Source: Escherichia coli (GTDB taxonomy: Bacteria; Pseudomonadota; Gammaproteobacteria; Enterobacterales; Enterobacteriaceae). Taken from it: a stretch of DNA of 64,000 bases. Shown here in pieces: positions 13,445-19,613 of this stretch. Where the stretch lies: assembly GCF_003334385.1 (NCBI RefSeq), contig NZ_QOWN01000013.1, one strand, 5' to 3'. Position numbers and translations under genes: made by a program. The notes under the pieces are model-generated. The model was given only the letters and a program-made list of their open reading frames with translations. It searched no databases and had not been told where the DNA came from. Positions within the stretch are counted from its first letter, which is position 1. Each line of letters begins with the position of its first letter.

Positions 13445-15076
13445 TTAGTGCTTCACAATGTACATATTCCGGGTATAGGTATTATCCAGCGGATCTTTGC
13501 CGGTATAGCCACCAACCCACGGTTTCACCAGACGCGCATTCACGTAGTAATAAACAGGAACAATGGCCGAATCCTTATCCAGCTGTTGTTCTGCTTTAGT
13601 GTACAGAGCTGTGCGCTGCGCCTCGTCAGTCACTTTCAGCGTTTCCGCCATAATGCTGTCAAAGGCCGGGCTCTTATAATGCGCGGTATTCATCGAGCTG
13701 TTCGAAAGCATGGTGTTCAGGAAGGAAGTTGGTTCGTTGTAGTCAGCACACCAGCCTGCACGGGCCACATCAAAAGTACCCTGGTGACGGGTGTCGAGGA
13801 ACGTTTTCCACTCCTGGTTAACCAGTTTGACGTTTACACCAATGTTTTTCTTCCACAATGAAGAGGCAGCAATCGCCAGCTTTTTATGCAGATCGGAGGT
13901 GTTATACAACAGGTTGATGGTCAACGGTTTGTCTGCGGTATAACCCGCTTCAGCCAGCAGTTTTTTCGCTTCTTCGTTACGTTTTTCCTGGCTCCAGCCA
14001 AACCATTCTGGCTGAGTCAATTTTGCGCCATCAGTATACGGTGGAGTGTAACCATAGGCGGGCATGTCGCCCTGCGCTTTCACTTTATTAACAATGATAT
14101 CGCGGTCCATACCTAGTTTCAGTGCGGTACGCACACGCACATCGTTGAATGGCGGTTTCTGGTTGTTAATTTCGTAATAGTAAGTGCACAGGTATGGATC
14201 AACGTGAACTTCGTCCGGGATCTCTTTTTTCAGCTTCTGGAACAATTCGATCGGCATGTTGTTATACGTCATGTCGATTTCACCACTACGGTAGCGGTTG
14301 ACATCGGTAACTTCAGAAGCAATAGGCAAATAGGTTACCTGGTTAATAACGGTTTTCGCGTTGTTCCAGTAGGTCGGGCTGCGTTCAAGAACGATTCGTT
14401 CGTTTACGACCCAATCTTTTAAGGTATAGGCACCGTTGGTGACGATATTACCAGGCTGGGTCCATTTTTCGTCGAATTTCTCGATAGCGGCTTTTGGCAC
14501 CGGTGAAGTTGATGGGTGAACAAGTAATTTATAGAAGTACGGAACGGGTTCACTTAAGGTGACTTCTAATGTGTGATCATCAATAGCTTTCACGCCGAGA
14601 TCGGTAATCGGTTTTTTCCCTTCAAGAATTTCATCAATACCGGCGATATGCCCATATTGCAGATAACTGGCATACGGAGAAGCAGTGTTCGGATCAACAG
14701 AACGTTGCCAGCTATACACAAAGTCTTGTGCTGTGACTGGCGTGCCATCAGACCATTTCGCATCTTTACGCAAATGGAAGGTCCAGACTTTCGCGTCTTT
14801 ATTATCCCAGGATTCAGCGACGCCAGGTGCTGGATGACCGTCAAGATCGCTGACCAGTAAGCCTTCAAACAGGTCTCGGCTGATATTAGACTCCGGAACA
14901 CCTTCAATTTTGTGCGGATCTAATGACTGAACTTCTGAACCATTGTTACGTACCAGTGTTTGTTTTTCCGCCAGTGTGACGCCTGCGGGTACATCAGCTG
15001 CCAGCGCGACATTCCCTGCCATTAGCGCAGCCAGAACGCCAGCTGCTACTAAACTTCTCTTGGTGATGTTGGTCAT
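13445..15076 (-). CDS. oppA: Periplasmic oligopeptide-binding protein OppA
   Basis: Start set at MTNITKRSLVAAGVLAALMAGNVALA (signal peptide, 543 aa); the ORF track begins 24 codons upstream. Confidence 0.95.
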   Translation of the reverse strand: MTNITKRSLVAAGVLAALMAGNVALAADVPAGVTLAEKQTLVRNNGSEVQSLDPHKIEGVPESNISRDLFEGLLVSDLDGHPAPGVAESWDNKDAKVWTFHLRKDAKWSDGTPVTAQDFVYSWQRSVDPNTASPYASYLQYGHIAGIDEILEGKKPITDLGVKAIDDHTLEVTLSEPVPYFYKLLVHPSTSPVPKAAIEKFDEKWTQPGNIVTNGAYTLKDWVVNERIVLERSPTYWNNAKTVINQVTYLPIASEVTDVNRYRSGEIDMTYNNMPIELFQKLKKEIPDEVHVDPYLCTYYYEINNQKPPFNDVRVRTALKLGMDRDIIVNKVKAQGDMPAYGYTPPYTDGAKLTQPEWFGWSQEKRNEEAKKLLAEAGYTADKPLTINLLYNTSDLHKKLAIAASSLWKKNIGVNVKLVNQEWKTFLDTRHQGTFDVARAGWCADYNEPTSFLNTMLSNSSMNTAHYKSPAFDSIMAETLKVTDEAQRTALYTKAEQQLDKDSAIVPVYYYVNARLVKPWVGGYTGKDPLDNTYTRNMYIVKH

Positions 15077-15813
15077 TGTTTTTTGGACTCCCTCATTATA
15101 ATTACTGGTATTAACCAGCATGTGTAATCCCGGATTGGGACCCTGCACAGGCTCGGAGACTTTCTGCTGTCAGGTTACTTTATCGTTACGTATTACTATC
15201 ACCGACTTTATTTATTCTGGTGATTCAGACGATCACCTTATGTCGATTCGTACTGTGTCTCCCCTGTCGAGACACATTATTCTTTCGCGACGCTCTTTAA
15301 TTGTTAATTATTCTCATTACCAATAAAGAATCGTCTGGCGGTTGCCCGGAAAGTACCAAATGCGGTTCTTACTCGCCAATACATTTTGCAAAATTGTTAA
15401 GCAATTCTCTTTTATTGACCGTATCAGAATCTATAGCTTGCATCCATGCCTTAACAAACATCTTTCAATTCAATCAAATAGAGATTGGCTAAGCATGTCT
15501 ATCTTTTCTGATTACAGTTCCAGTAGTGAAATGCACAATAATTTAACAATTGATTATTATTTAGCACTTTCCTCTACCAAAGGCAGTGGAATTACTAATA
15601 TCATTTCAATTATTCTTCAGCAAGCCCAGGATTATGATGTGGCGAAAATAACATGATGGTGAGGAGAAGCAGTTAAGGAAATCCTTATAACTAACTGTAA
15701 TTTGAGAAGAATATTTTTACCTATTCCTTTTGCTTTTGATAACTGCGCGGGAACAAAGTAAAAATAATGACGAAGTAAACGGAGCATGGCAGCTCCGTTT
15801 CATTTGAAAGGAA

Positions 15814-16461
15814 TTAATTAAGCAGGCCGGGGAAAATCCCCTTAATACCAGTAACGATAAATTCAATCCCCAATGCCATCAGCAATAGCCCCATAATACG
15901 CGTAATCACGTTGATGCCGGTCTGGCGTAAAACCCGTACCAGCCACGGTGCCATGCGGAACAATCCCCAACAACATAAAGCGAACAATGCAATAGCCACA
16001 AAGAAACCAAACAGATAGCTAATGCTGTGATAACGCGTACCCCAGACGATGGTAGAACTGATCGCCCCTGGCCCCGCCATCAACGGCAACGCCAGTGGCA
16101 CCACACCAATGCTTTCACGTACCGCGGTTTCTGATTTTTCTTGCTTGTTCTGTTTATCCTCGCCAAGCTTGCCGCTGATCATCGACATCGCTATTGTCAC
16201 CACTAGGATACCCCCGGCGATACGGAACGAATCAATTGATATACCAAAAAGTTGTAGAATCGTGTCGCCGAGAAAAAGCGAGATCCACAAGATAATGGCC
16301 ACAGACAGGTTGGCTGTAAGGTTAGTTTTGTTTCGCGCTGCCGCTGTCTGATAACTGGTCATGCTGATAAAGACGGGAATAATCCCTACCGGGTTGACCA
16401 GCGCAAATAACCCGATGAAAAATTTGAAGTAAACGGGAAAATCAAAAAAGGTCTGAATCAC
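15814..16461 (-). CDS. ychE: MarC-family inner membrane protein YchE
   Basis: 215-aa multi-TM ORF, synteny. Confidence 0.85.
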   Translation of the reverse strand: MIQTFFDFPVYFKFFIGLFALVNPVGIIPVFISMTSYQTAAARNKTNLTANLSVAIILWISLFLGDTILQLFGISIDSFRIAGGILVVTIAMSMISGKLGEDKQNKQEKSETAVRESIGVVPLALPLMAGPGAISSTIVWGTRYHSISYLFGFFVAIALFALCCWGLFRMAPWLVRVLRQTGINVITRIMGLLLMALGIEFIVTGIKGIFPGLLN

Positions 16462-16937
16462 GGTTAGCTCCGAAGCAAAAGCCGGATAATGTTAGCCATA
16501 AATAAGGTTGAAAAGACGCGCTGACAATACGCCTTTTGACAGCATTTTTCACCTCCTAACTACTTAAAATTGCTATCATTCGTTATTGTTATCTAGTTGT
16601 GCAAAACATGCTAATGTAGCCACCAAATCATACTACAATTTATTAACTGTTAGCTATAATGGCGAAAAGCGATGCTGAAAGGTGTCAGCTTTGCAAAAAT
16701 TTGATTTAGATCACGTAATCAGTACCCAGAAGTGAGTAATCTTGCTTACGCCACCTGGAAGTGACGCATTAGAGATAATAACTCTAATGTTTAAACTCTT
16801 TTAGTAAATCACAGTGAGTGTGAGCGCGAGTAAGCTTTTGATTTTCATAGGTTAAGCAAATCATCACCGCACTGACTATACTCTCGTATTCGAGCAGATG
16901 ATTTACTAAAAAAGTTTAACATTATCAGGAGAGCATT

Positions 16938-19613
16938 ATGGCTGTTACTAATGTCGCTGAACTTAACGCACTCGTAGAGCGTGTAAAAAAAGCCCAGCGT
17001 GAATATGCCAGTTTCACTCAAGAGCAAGTAGACAAAATCTTCCGCGCCGCCGCTCTGGCTGCTGCAGATGCTCGAATCCCACTCGCGAAAATGGCCGTTG
17101 CCGAATCCGGCATGGGTATCGTCGAAGATAAAGTGATCAAAAACCACTTTGCTTCTGAATATATCTACAACGCCTATAAAGATGAAAAAACCTGTGGTGT
17201 TCTGTCTGAAGACGACACTTTTGGTACCATCACTATCGCTGAACCAATCGGTATTATTTGCGGTATCGTTCCGACCACTAACCCGACTTCAACTGCTATC
17301 TTCAAATCGCTGATCAGTCTGAAGACCCGTAACGCCATTATCTTCTCCCCGCACCCGCGTGCAAAAGATGCCACCAACAAAGCGGCTGATATCGTTCTGC
17401 AGGCTGCTATCGCTGCCGGTGCTCCGAAAGATCTGATCGGCTGGATCGATCAACCTTCTGTTGAACTGTCTAACGCACTGATGCACCACCCAGACATCAA
17501 CCTGATCCTCGCGACTGGTGGTCCGGGCATGGTTAAAGCCGCATACAGCTCCGGTAAACCAGCTATCGGTGTAGGCGCGGGCAACACTCCAGTTGTTATC
17601 GATGAAACTGCTGATATCAAACGTGCAGTTGCATCTGTACTGATGTCCAAAACCTTCGACAACGGCGTAATCTGTGCTTCTGAACAGTCTGTTGTTGTTG
17701 TTGACTCTGTTTATGACGCTGTACGTGAACGTTTTGCAACCCACGGCGGCTATCTGTTGCAGGGTAAAGAGCTGAAAGCTGTTCAGGATGTTATCCTGAA
17801 AAACGGTGCGCTGAACGCGGCTATCGTTGGTCAGCCAGCCTATAAAATTGCTGAACTGGCAGGCTTCTCTGTACCAGAAAACACCAAGATTCTGATCGGT
17901 GAAGTGACCGTTGTTGATGAAAGCGAACCGTTCGCACATGAAAAACTGTCCCCGACTCTGGCAATGTACCGCGCTAAAGATTTCGAAGACGCGGTAGAAA
18001 AAGCAGAGAAACTGGTTGCTATGGGCGGTATCGGTCATACCTCTTGCCTGTACACTGACCAGGATAACCAACCGGCTCGCGTTTCTTACTTCGGTCAGAA
18101 AATGAAAACGGCGCGTATCCTGATTAACACCCCAGCGTCTCAGGGTGGTATCGGTGACCTGTATAACTTCAAACTCGCACCTTCCCTGACTCTGGGTTGT
18201 GGTTCTTGGGGTGGTAACTCCATCTCTGAAAACGTTGGTCCGAAACACCTGATCAACAAGAAAACCGTTGCTAAGCGAGCTGAAAACATGTTGTGGCACA
18301 AACTTCCGAAATCTATCTACTTCCGCCGTGGCTCCCTGCCAATCGCGCTGGATGAAGTGATTACTGATGGCCACAAACGTGCGCTCATCGTGACTGACCG
18401 CTTCCTGTTCAACAATGGTTATGCTGATCAGATCACTTCCGTACTGAAAGCAGCAGGCGTTGAAACTGAAGTCTTCTTCGAAGTAGAAGCGGACCCGACC
18501 CTGAGCATCGTTCGTAAAGGTGCAGAACTGGCAAACTCCTTCAAACCAGACGTGATTATCGCGCTGGGTGGTGGTTCCCCGATGGACGCCGCGAAGATCA
18601 TGTGGGTTATGTACGAACATCCGGAAACTCACTTCGAAGAGCTGGCGCTGCGCTTTATGGATATCCGTAAACGTATCTACAAGTTCCCGAAAATGGGCGT
18701 GAAAGCGAAAATGATCGCTGTCACCACCACTTCTGGTACAGGTTCTGAAGTCACTCCGTTTGCGGTTGTAACTGACGACGCTACTGGTCAGAAATATCCG
18801 CTGGCAGACTATGCGCTGACTCCGGATATGGCGATTGTCGACGCCAACCTGGTTATGGACATGCCGAAGTCCCTGTGTGCTTTCGGTGGTCTGGACGCAG
18901 TAACTCACGCCATGGAAGCTTATGTTTCTGTACTGGCATCTGAGTTCTCTGATGGTCAGGCTCTGCAGGCACTGAAACTGCTGAAAGAATATCTGCCAGC
19001 GTCCTACCACGAAGGGTCTAAAAATCCGGTAGCGCGTGAACGTGTTCACAGTGCAGCGACTATCGCGGGTATCGCGTTTGCGAACGCCTTCCTGGGTGTA
19101 TGTCACTCAATGGCGCACAAACTGGGTTCCCAGTTCCATATTCCGCACGGTCTGGCAAACGCCCTGCTGATTTGTAACGTTATTCGCTACAATGCGAACG
19201 ACAACCCGACCAAGCAGACTGCATTCAGCCAGTATGACCGTCCGCAGGCTCGCCGTCGTTATGCTGAAATTGCCGACCACTTGGGTCTGAGCGCACCGGG
19301 CGACCGTACTGCTGCTAAGATCGAGAAACTGCTGGCATGGCTGGAAACGCTGAAAGCTGAACTGGGTATTCCGAAATCTATCCGTGAAGCTGGCGTTCAG
19401 GAAGCAGACTTCCTGGCGAACGTGGATAAACTGTCTGAAGATGCATTCGATGACCAGTGCACCGGCGCTAACCCGCGTTACCCGCTGATCTCCGAGCTGA
19501 AACAGATTCTGCTGGATACCTACTACGGTCGTGATTATGTAGAAGGTGAAACTGCAGCGAAGAAAGAAGCTGCTCCGGCTAAAGCTGAGAAAAAAGCGAA
19601 AAAATCCGCTTAA
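16938..19613 (+). CDS. adhE: Bifunctional acetaldehyde-CoA / alcohol dehydrogenase AdhE
   Basis: 891-aa ORF with an N-terminal aldehyde dehydrogenase domain and C-terminal iron-containing ADH domain; preceded by AGGAGA RBS and followed by a terminator hairpin near 19707-19736. Confidence 0.97.

Follow-up and report, generated by a model that had tools for sequence, protein, structure and literature searches.

The ychE–oppA spacer of an Escherichia coli chromosome: very probably the promoter region and long 5′ untranslated leader of oppABCDF, faced by an accidental open frame

The window, by which we mean the whole 64,000-nucleotide stretch of DNA analysed, is a piece of Escherichia coli chromosome in an orientation reversed relative to K-12. 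The oppA and oppB genes lie on its minus strand, together with ychE, and adhE lies on the plus strand. A preliminary description of this DNA had named oppA and ychE correctly. The landmarks of the locus are:

15076-15074, minus strand: ATG start codon of oppA (MTNITKRSLVAAG...), in agreement with the RefSeq oppA call
15077-15813: ychE–oppA spacer, 737 bp
15814-16461, minus strand: ychE
16938-19613, plus strand: adhE

The spacer has a GC content of 0.373, versus 0.497 for the whole window, and falls to a lowest point near 0.33. The AT-rich intergenic region of about 740 bp that had been described is therefore real, but the start coordinate given for it, 15149, is wrong and should read 15077. 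The error arose because the mechanical list of open reading frames extends oppA (13445-15148) to a GTG at 15148, upstream of the ATG at 15076. As the true start codon lies at 15076, the last 72 nt of the leader, which contain the Shine-Dalgarno (SD) sequence and a predicted GcvB site, had fallen outside the span. Of 5426 complete E. coli genomes, 5424 contain the spacer, nearly always at 95-100% identity.

The architecture of this region is already known, and its leader is among the better-studied bacterial ones. Using primer extension, Carrier, Lalaouna and Masse (RNA Biol 2023, PMC9988348) confirmed that oppA has two transcription starts, P1 (+1) and P2 (+246), both of which were first seen by Igarashi et al. 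1997, as cited in that paper. The same study identified the former “P3” at +341 (Igarashi 1997) as an RNase E processing site, demonstrated that pairing of the small RNA MicF at +372..+393 activates oppA translation via an adjacent A/U-rich enhancer, and placed the action of GcvB and Hfq at the oppA ribosome-binding site. A polyamine-responsive SD/AUG structure and transcriptional control by Lrp are cited there as well.

We placed the published positions on the window via the oligonucleotides of Table S3 of that paper (EM5064, EM4528, EM5095), so that the start sites given here rest on PMC9988348 and its oligonucleotide table, with P1 and P2 mapped in K-12. For the P1-promoter fusion, the reverse primer finishes with ...AATTCCA; ATCGACATAAGG is the beginning of the T7-oppA template, whose first position is the cleavage site at +341; and the deletion named 399 (oligo EM5095) starts at +399 and takes out GTAACGATAAAGTAACCTGA. 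These three independent anchors concur in setting +1 at the A at 15587. Across the published oligonucleotides the window and K-12 differ by a single base, and the two start sites, 245 nt apart, and the RNase E site at +341 all fall at the published sequences. The AUG is thereby placed at +512, and the leaders that begin at P1, at P2 and at the RNase E end measure 511, 266 and 171 nt. The transcription-control elements in the upstream part of the spacer are:

15777-15800, minus strand: hairpin read from the sequence, candidate intrinsic terminator of ychE (AAACGGAGC / GCUCCGUUU)
15587-15653, minus strand: oppA promoter P1, start A at 15587, 511-nt 5′ UTR
15653-15646, minus strand: invariant element GTTATTTT upstream of P1
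15623-15618, minus strand: probable P1 -35, TTGCTG, assigned from spacing
15603-15595, minus strand: probable P1 extended -10, TGaTATTAG, assigned from spacing
15534-15573, minus strand: conserved block AGAGGAAAGTGCTAAATAATAATCAATTGTTAAATTATTGTG (+15..+54 of the P1 transcript), conservation 0.79-0.84 across genera
15414-15533, minus strand: leader spacer between P1 and P2, identity to other genera 0.25-0.35
15342-15413, minus strand: oppA promoter P2, start A at 15342 (+246), 266-nt 5′ UTR
15413-15374, minus strand: near-invariant block AAAAGAGAATTGCTTAACAATTTTGCAAAATGTATTGGCG upstream of P2
15358-15350, minus strand: probable P2 extended -10, TGgTACTTT
15300-15320, no strand assigned: Fur-box-like sequence GGTAATGAGAATAATTAACAA, downstream of P2

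To follow these elements across the family, the locus was fetched with YchE from one genome per species. In 76 species of Enterobacteriaceae ychE is followed by oppA in the same arrangement, with the spacer running from ychE to the start codon of oppA, on the strand of oppA; its length ranges from 664 to 878 bp and is mostly 745-775 bp. Averaged over the non-Escherichia genera, identity to the window is only 0.25-0.5 in most of the spacer, and the conserved islands, with identities of 0.65-0.92, coincide with known elements. These islands comprise P1 (15653-15594), the block at 15573-15534, P2 with its upstream block (15413-15345), the Fur box, GAAUCGAC at the RNase E site, the MicF site, and the region from UAAUUAUAAUGAG to the SD.

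The hairpin that follows ychE would function as its terminator. In the 76-species alignment its stem has compensatory substitutions between genera, with GGCGGCG/CGCCGCC-like variants in Salmonella and AGCAGAAU/AUUCUGCU in Buttiauxella. The U-tract after the hairpin is weak in E. coli and is a clean U-run in most relatives; a simple scan did not call the terminator because the T-run is interrupted.

The layout of P1 can be read as TTGCTG-N17-TATTAG with a TG before the -10. The P1 block is 65-92% identical across the non-Escherichia genera, and GAAATGATATTAG is nearly invariant. The -10 TATTAG found in the window is the family-wide form, from which the K-12 hexamer, TATTAT, differs by one base, and this base is the sole departure of the window from the published layout. 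The strength of P1 in the window strain is inferred. For P2, a TTGGCG located 18 bp upstream of TGgTACTTT may be the matching -35, judging from sequence and spacing. Conservation in the P2 region reaches 0.88-0.92, and in 66 of 66 species exactly 53 bp separate the -10 from the upstream block. Both promoters look to be of the extended -10 type. A consensus promoter and terminator scan of the spacer returned sites no more numerous than in shuffled sequence; it picked up the TTAACA-17-AAGAAT site predicted from genomic SELEX (see below) and missed P1 and P2, both probably of the extended -10 type with weak hexamers. Motifs for Lrp, ArcA, IHF, CRP and FNR were sought by eye in the invariant blocks, and none was convincing. 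Within the block at 15534-15573, TGTTAAATTATTGTG may resemble ArcA-type direct repeats.

In 67 of 75 species the P1 and P2 -10 blocks lie 254-256 bp apart, and Escherichia has 247 bp between them; this length is kept although the intervening ~145 nt are unconserved. Stable RNA structure was considered as an explanation and rejected, since the P1–P2 spacer has no excess folding energy (mean z -0.7 sense, -0.4 antisense).

Downstream of P2, a 21.5-bit cluster of Fur sites has been reported at -233 from oppA and gave a gel shift with Fur; Fur repression, the authors remark, was not seen on microarrays (PMC2189734). Counted from the ATG at 15076, -233 corresponds to about 15309, within the Fur-box-like sequence, in which GATGAGAAT.ATT is kept across genera. 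Genomic SELEX returned an RpoD-holoenzyme site, TTAACA-17-AAGAAT, which falls at 15307-15279 in the window, and flagged H-NS binding in the ychE–oppA spacer (PMC3946193).

The 3′ third of the leader carries the processing site, the small-RNA sites and a set of RNA helices:

15254-15276, minus strand: leader hairpin 1 (+312..+334), with a covarying stem and a conserved loop ACAGGG
15242-15248, minus strand: RNase E processing site, new 5′ end at the A at 15247 (+341), within the invariant GAAUCGAC, leaving a 171-nt leader
15219-15237, minus strand: leader hairpin 2 (+351..+369), immediately 5′ of the MicF site
15195-15216, minus strand: MicF pairing site (+372..+393), AAUAAAUAAAGUCGGUGAUAGU
15170-15189, minus strand: A/U-rich putative translational enhancer (+399..+418), GUAACGAUAAAGUAACCUGA, removed in the deletion-399 construct
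15142-15174, minus strand: leader helix CCUGACAG / CUGUGCAGG (+414..+446)
15074-15118, minus strand: translation-initiation region, AUG at 15076-15074, SD GAGGGAG at about 15092-15086
15118-15105, minus strand: hairpin GCUGGU/ACCAG of the initiation region

When the last 210 nt of the leader were analysed with RNAalifold in 73 species, six helices were predicted. The structure comprises 32 consensus pairs with 96.4% of the cells paired, and 19 of the 32 pairs have changes on both sides. Doubly changed cells number 256, compared with 79 ± 11 in shuffled alignments (none of 500 shuffles reached 256), and the covariation score is 0.386, whereas a shift of the partners by 1-3 columns gives no more than 0.112. 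Four helices covary, at +312..+334, +351..+369, +414..+446 and +470..+483. All seven pairs of hairpin 1 are changed on both sides, with 92-96% of cells paired (RNAalifold and pair counts); hairpin 2 has compensatory changes in five of its seven pairs, with 95.7% of cells paired, as does the helix at +414..+446 (five of seven, 95%); and the pairs of the GCUGGU/ACCAG hairpin are 98.6% paired, two of them with compensatory changes, next to an invariant UAAUUAUAAUGAG. A fifth helix is predicted between AUCGAC, at the 5′ end generated by RNase E, and GUCGGU, inside the MicF site; it would be paired in 99% of cells and its sequence is invariant. The palindrome of hairpin 1 also appeared as “terminator-like” on the plus strand in the scan.

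Conservation of GAATCGAC at the RNase E site is 90% or more. Small-RNA duplexes were located with seed-restricted scans; whole-length folding over-extended the interactions. When nucleotides 1-33 of MicF were scanned against the whole leader, the best site was +371..+394 (ΔG -20.2 kcal/mol), in line with the protection from lead acetate seen at +372..+392/393 (PMC9988348). The MicF-complementary site lies about 120 nt upstream of the AUG, and AAGTCGGTGATAG within it is nearly invariant in the 73 species. The neighbouring +399..+418 region, proposed as an enhancer exposed by MicF (PMC9988348), is A-rich and poorly conserved in sequence. For GcvB, a duplex with its R1 region is predicted at -10..+17, across CCAAAAAACAAUGACCAACAUCACCAA (ΔG -23.7).

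Taken together, the spacer opens with the probable ychE terminator, followed by two sigma-70 promoters, P1 (15587) and P2 (15342), whose transcripts carry leaders of 511 and 266 nt; cleavage by RNase E at 15247 yields the 171-nt form. Several post-transcriptional inputs are integrated in the structured 3′ third. MicF, by pairing at 15216-15195, raises translation in E. coli by exposing the adjacent A/U-rich enhancer, GcvB with Hfq blocks the oppA ribosome-binding site, and polyamines alter the structure around the SD and AUG, while the DNA of the spacer itself, according to the literature, is bound by Lrp, Fur and H-NS. Published experiments have demonstrated both start sites, the RNase E cleavage, the pairing and effect of MicF, repression by GcvB/Hfq and the Fur gel shift. 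The placement on the window, the conserved length and blocks across the family, the covariation of four helices and the lack of coding constraint on the open frame come from the present analysis, and the precise hexamers, the GcvB pairing coordinates and the function of the terminator are inferences. We consider it very probable that this spacer controls the transcription of oppABCDF and encodes the long 5′ untranslated leader of the operon, and that the open frame on its plus strand is accidental. The preliminary description had already favoured an extended oppA leader and promoter region over a gene, and this view matches the published architecture of P1, P2, RNase E, MicF and GcvB/Hfq. Its statement that oppA mRNA is a GcvB target is likewise established (PMC9988348), although GcvB is just one of several regulators of the leader. 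The 104-aa open frame, which had been counted as part of the leader, is very probably not a gene, but it runs antisense to the leader rather than in the leader's own orientation:

15342-15656, plus strand: 104-codon frame from a TTG at 15342; 98 aa from the ATG at 15360 and 53 aa from the ATG at 15495

The frame is antisense to promoter P1 and to +1..+246 of the leader. Its annotation is inconsistent: of 30 genomes sampled evenly, about 21 carry a PGAP/RefSeq “hypothetical protein” call for the version from ATG 15360 (98 aa, WP_001211520/21/24), the 53-aa version is annotated in at least one other genome, and no version is annotated in others. The earlier remark that the 104-aa frame lacks a ribosome-binding site holds insofar as no good SD precedes TTG 15342 or ATG 15360, but a weak GGAAAG is found 8 nt before ATG 15360. 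In 3000 dinucleotide-preserving shuffles of the spacer, an open reading frame of at least 104 aa arose in 3.2% and an equal stop-free run in 4.7%, and some open frame of at least 100 aa also occurs in 21 of 76 orthologous spacers. The length of the frame is thus borderline, somewhat above what is typical by chance (P about 0.03-0.05).

The frame is intact in most of the sampled E. coli and is broken elsewhere. Stops or frameshifts interrupt it in each of the five further Escherichia species and in every other genus (2-11 stops per genus). In the closest sister species, whose DNA is 94% identical, codon 21 is a stop and the ATG of the 53-aa version is gone. Among E. coli strains, O157:H7 SS52 and FDAARGOS_946 have an in-frame stop at codon 42, and the MG1655 reference carries an IS5 inside the frame. 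A comparison of synonymous with non-synonymous changes, which had been proposed as a check on the frame, came out against a gene on both the ratio and the broken frames of the relatives. It was carried out on 13 sampled sequences, 12 from E. coli and one from the closest sister species, and gave the following values:

104-codon frame: pN/pS 0.58; variable sites by codon position 18/15/14
The five remaining frames of this DNA: pN/pS 0.50-0.97
oppA, first 600 nt: pN/pS 0.03; variable sites by codon position 3/2/26
ychE: pN/pS 0.04; variable sites by codon position 10/0/30

A homology search among 5.8 billion proteins returned 51 matches of 53-143 aa, all named ones being “hypothetical”. All but one of these come from Escherichia/Shigella or from unnamed records, and the exception is labelled Enterobacter hormaechei. 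No relevant domain was found in the 51 homologues, no Pfam or NCBIfam model matched the frame, and papers naming both ychE and oppA mention no such protein. Two peptide stretches that seem conserved, ANTFCKIVKQFSF and ITNIISIILQQ, come from the P2-upstream and P1 blocks read as reverse complement, so that parts of the frame look conserved because the opposite strand is a functional, conserved leader.

Could the frame nevertheless be a young, E. coli-restricted de novo coding gene of 98-104 aa, or of its 53-aa C-terminal part, antisense to the oppA leader? Its intactness in most sampled E. coli, the PGAP calls and a length slightly beyond chance speak in this direction, as does a promoter-like match on the plus strand, which is however located inside the frame at 15532-15560 and not upstream of it. 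Against this, purifying selection is absent, with a pN/pS like that of the other frames and variation that is flat across codon positions, and premature stops in the two E. coli strains and the sister species, as well as the IS5 of MG1655, interrupt the frame. A GC content of 34%, the lack of a convincing SD and of any domain or family match point the same way, and conservation at the peptide level falls exactly on promoter blocks that are conserved as DNA in all genera whatever the frame. Frame preservation, purifying selection and wider homologues or domains, which would mark a protein-coding gene, were each lacking. A de novo gene is on these grounds very unlikely, and we judge the 104-codon frame to be a chance open frame, intact in just part of E. 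coli, that encodes no functional protein. The RefSeq “hypothetical protein” coding sequence at this position is probably spurious. The frame resembles spurious open frames in AT-rich, H-NS-bound DNA in its restricted taxonomy, variable length and start, lack of a domain and of selection, and inconsistent annotation, and differs from typical ones in that it faces a functional conserved leader on the opposite strand. It should not be counted as an orphan gene.

Two further readings concern the spacer as a whole. Its main product in E. coli might be a stand-alone or leader-derived Hfq-binding small RNA that acts in trans, either an equivalent of Salmonella OppX or the “ychE-oppA” small RNA of Raghavan et al. 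2011. Matera 2022, as cited in PMC9988348, describes OppX-L, -M and -S (410, 190 and 109 nt) as leader-derived Salmonella RNAs that sponge MicF, an Hfq-dependent RNA-seq signal named “ychE-oppA” is attributed to E. coli in secondary citations of Raghavan 2011, and the MicF site and its flanking hairpins are near-invariant and covarying across the family. In E. coli, however, no stable fragment of the oppA 5′ UTR was detectable and MicF acts on the full oppA mRNA (PMC9988348), and no Rfam 15 family matches. Specifically, a scan of 14800-16100 at E ≤ 1 returned no model for the leader or OppX; a MIR399 match with E = 0.14, far below the gathering score, was dismissed as chance. We regard a trans-acting RNA as the main product as improbable, although less so than a de novo gene. 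An origin of the AT-rich spacer by horizontal transfer, from a mobile element or as the remains of a decayed gene, silenced by H-NS, has next to no likelihood. Its GC content of 0.373, the H-NS flag in genomic SELEX and the repeated IS insertions in laboratory strains would fit such an origin, but 76 species from many genera share the position of the spacer and, nearly, its length, its promoter and RNA blocks are up to 92% conserved with covarying helices, it is found in all but two of the 5426 E. coli genomes, and the copy in the window contains no IS or repeat remnant. A horizontal or mobile origin of this DNA is rejected on the grounds of synteny and conservation, and the promoter and leader of oppABCDF remain the preferred reading.

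The oppA region of E. coli K-12 (Igarashi et al. 1997; Yoshida et al. 1999; PMC9988348) is the same locus, with its elements at the expected spacing. In Salmonella the orthologous region is that of OppX; both S. enterica subspecies sampled, arizonae and diarizonae, retain the RNase E motif and the MicF site together with hairpins 1 and 2. The two systems differ in that OppX is described, in the work cited above, as a sponge for MicF, whereas in E. coli MicF activates oppA translation and a stable fragment was not detected (PMC9988348). The oppA mRNA also resembles dppA and tcyJ, the other GcvB-repressed mRNAs for periplasmic binding proteins, in its C/A-rich initiation region and in the predicted pairing with the G/U-rich R1 of GcvB. 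GcvB nevertheless accounts for just the last 30 nt or so of the 511-nt leader, the rest of which contains the other elements.

At this locus the usual laboratory lineages depart from wild type, which matters when the regulation of oppA is extrapolated from them: K-12 has the base change in the P1 -10, and IS5, IS2 and IS1 copies have inserted. The IS5 of MG1655, which the window lacks, lies within the conserved block downstream of P1, with its target duplication at 15561-15564 (+24..+27 of the P1 transcript). W3110 carries an IS2 near the P1 -10, and JM83 an IS1 inside the MicF site; in total, K-12 laboratory lineages carry three IS insertions of independent origin in the vicinity of P1 and the MicF site.

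The frame of 104 aa that runs antisense to the oppA leader (15342-15656, + strand) is treated unevenly in public genomes. RefSeq/PGAP calls a 98-aa "hypothetical protein" (WP_001211520/21/24) at 15360-15656 on the + strand in roughly 21 of the 30 complete E. coli genomes that were sampled. A 53-aa version (15495-15656) is annotated instead in at least one genome, that of strain KFu014, and further genomes carry no annotation of the frame. The CDS annotation at 15360-15656 is inconsistent between genomes and very probably spurious.

The following blocks of the ychE-oppA spacer, where oppA is read from the − strand, are near-invariant across Enterobacteriaceae:

15646-15653, GTTATTTT, upstream of the P1 −35
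15534-15573, AGAGGAAAGTGCTAAATAATAATCAATTGTTAAATTATTGTG, +15 to +54 of the P1 transcript
15374-15413, AAAAGAGAATTGCTTAACAATTTTGCAAAATGTATTGGCG, −71 to −32 of P2

In 66 of 66 species, exactly 53 bp separate the AAAAGAGAATTGCTTAACAATTTTGCAAAATGTATTGGCG block from the P2 −10. The P1 −10 block and the P2 −10 block (window 15350-15603) lie 254-256 bp apart in 67 of 75 species and 247 bp apart in Escherichia, and other segments of the oppA leader vary more in length than this distance does. The stretch of about 145 nt that separates the conserved P1 and P2 blocks is itself unconserved in sequence, and a search of it for excess RNA folding energy found none. The P1 −10 reads TATTAG in the window (the final G at 15595, − strand), in 10 other E. 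coli and in all 74 of the other species examined; it reads TATTAT in sequences of the K-12 lineage (MG1655, O16:H48 PG20180058 and JM83), and K-12 is the strain used for the published mapping of P1.

Insertion sequences have entered this spacer in K-12. The MG1655 reference carries an IS5 (IS5U, insH21; 2000-3194 of L004, the retrieved NC_000913.3 locus) at a TTAG corresponding to 15561-15564, that is, +24 to +27 of the P1 transcript, within both a conserved block and the 104-aa frame; the window strain is without IS5 at this site. In JM83, an IS1A (1332-2099 of the retrieved locus L095), flanked by a 9-bp duplication of window 15200-15208, interrupts the MicF pairing site and cuts oppA off from both P1 and P2. 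An IS2 has been reported in ychE-oppA of W3110, at U00096.2 position 1298687 (PMC2072959). This position translates to about 15595 in the window, in the P1 −10, with 519 bp between it and the oppA start codon downstream. Three K-12 lineages have thus acquired independent insertions in the spacer.

In the consensus fold of the leader, AUCGAC (+341 to +346, 15242-15247), the 5′ end after RNase E cleavage, is paired with GUCGGU (+382 to +387, 15201-15206), part of the MicF site. The helix is 99% paired and invariant among 73 species, and because of this invariance it has no covariation support. Once the leader has been processed, this predicted helix might make the MicF site inaccessible.

The mechanically called oppA ORF (13445-15148, − strand) begins at a GTG at 15148 and so adds 72 nt ahead of the true start codon, the ATG at 15076. 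Since this extension holds a covarying hairpin and the near-invariant UAAUUAUAAUGAG as well as the SD, it is leader rather than coding sequence. A small ORF lies farther upstream:

15632-15787, − strand (that of oppA), 51-aa ORF whose start closely follows the terminator hairpin of ychE

It overlaps the 104-aa frame at the latter's 3′ end, and two of four retrieved public assemblies (L088 and L089) annotate it as a gene. Conservation within the spacer is lowest where this ORF lies (identity 0.23-0.49). Upstream of ychE, the window also contains the 17-codon small ORF ychT (16492-16545, − strand; K-12 b4771), which RefSeq relatives carry as an annotated feature.
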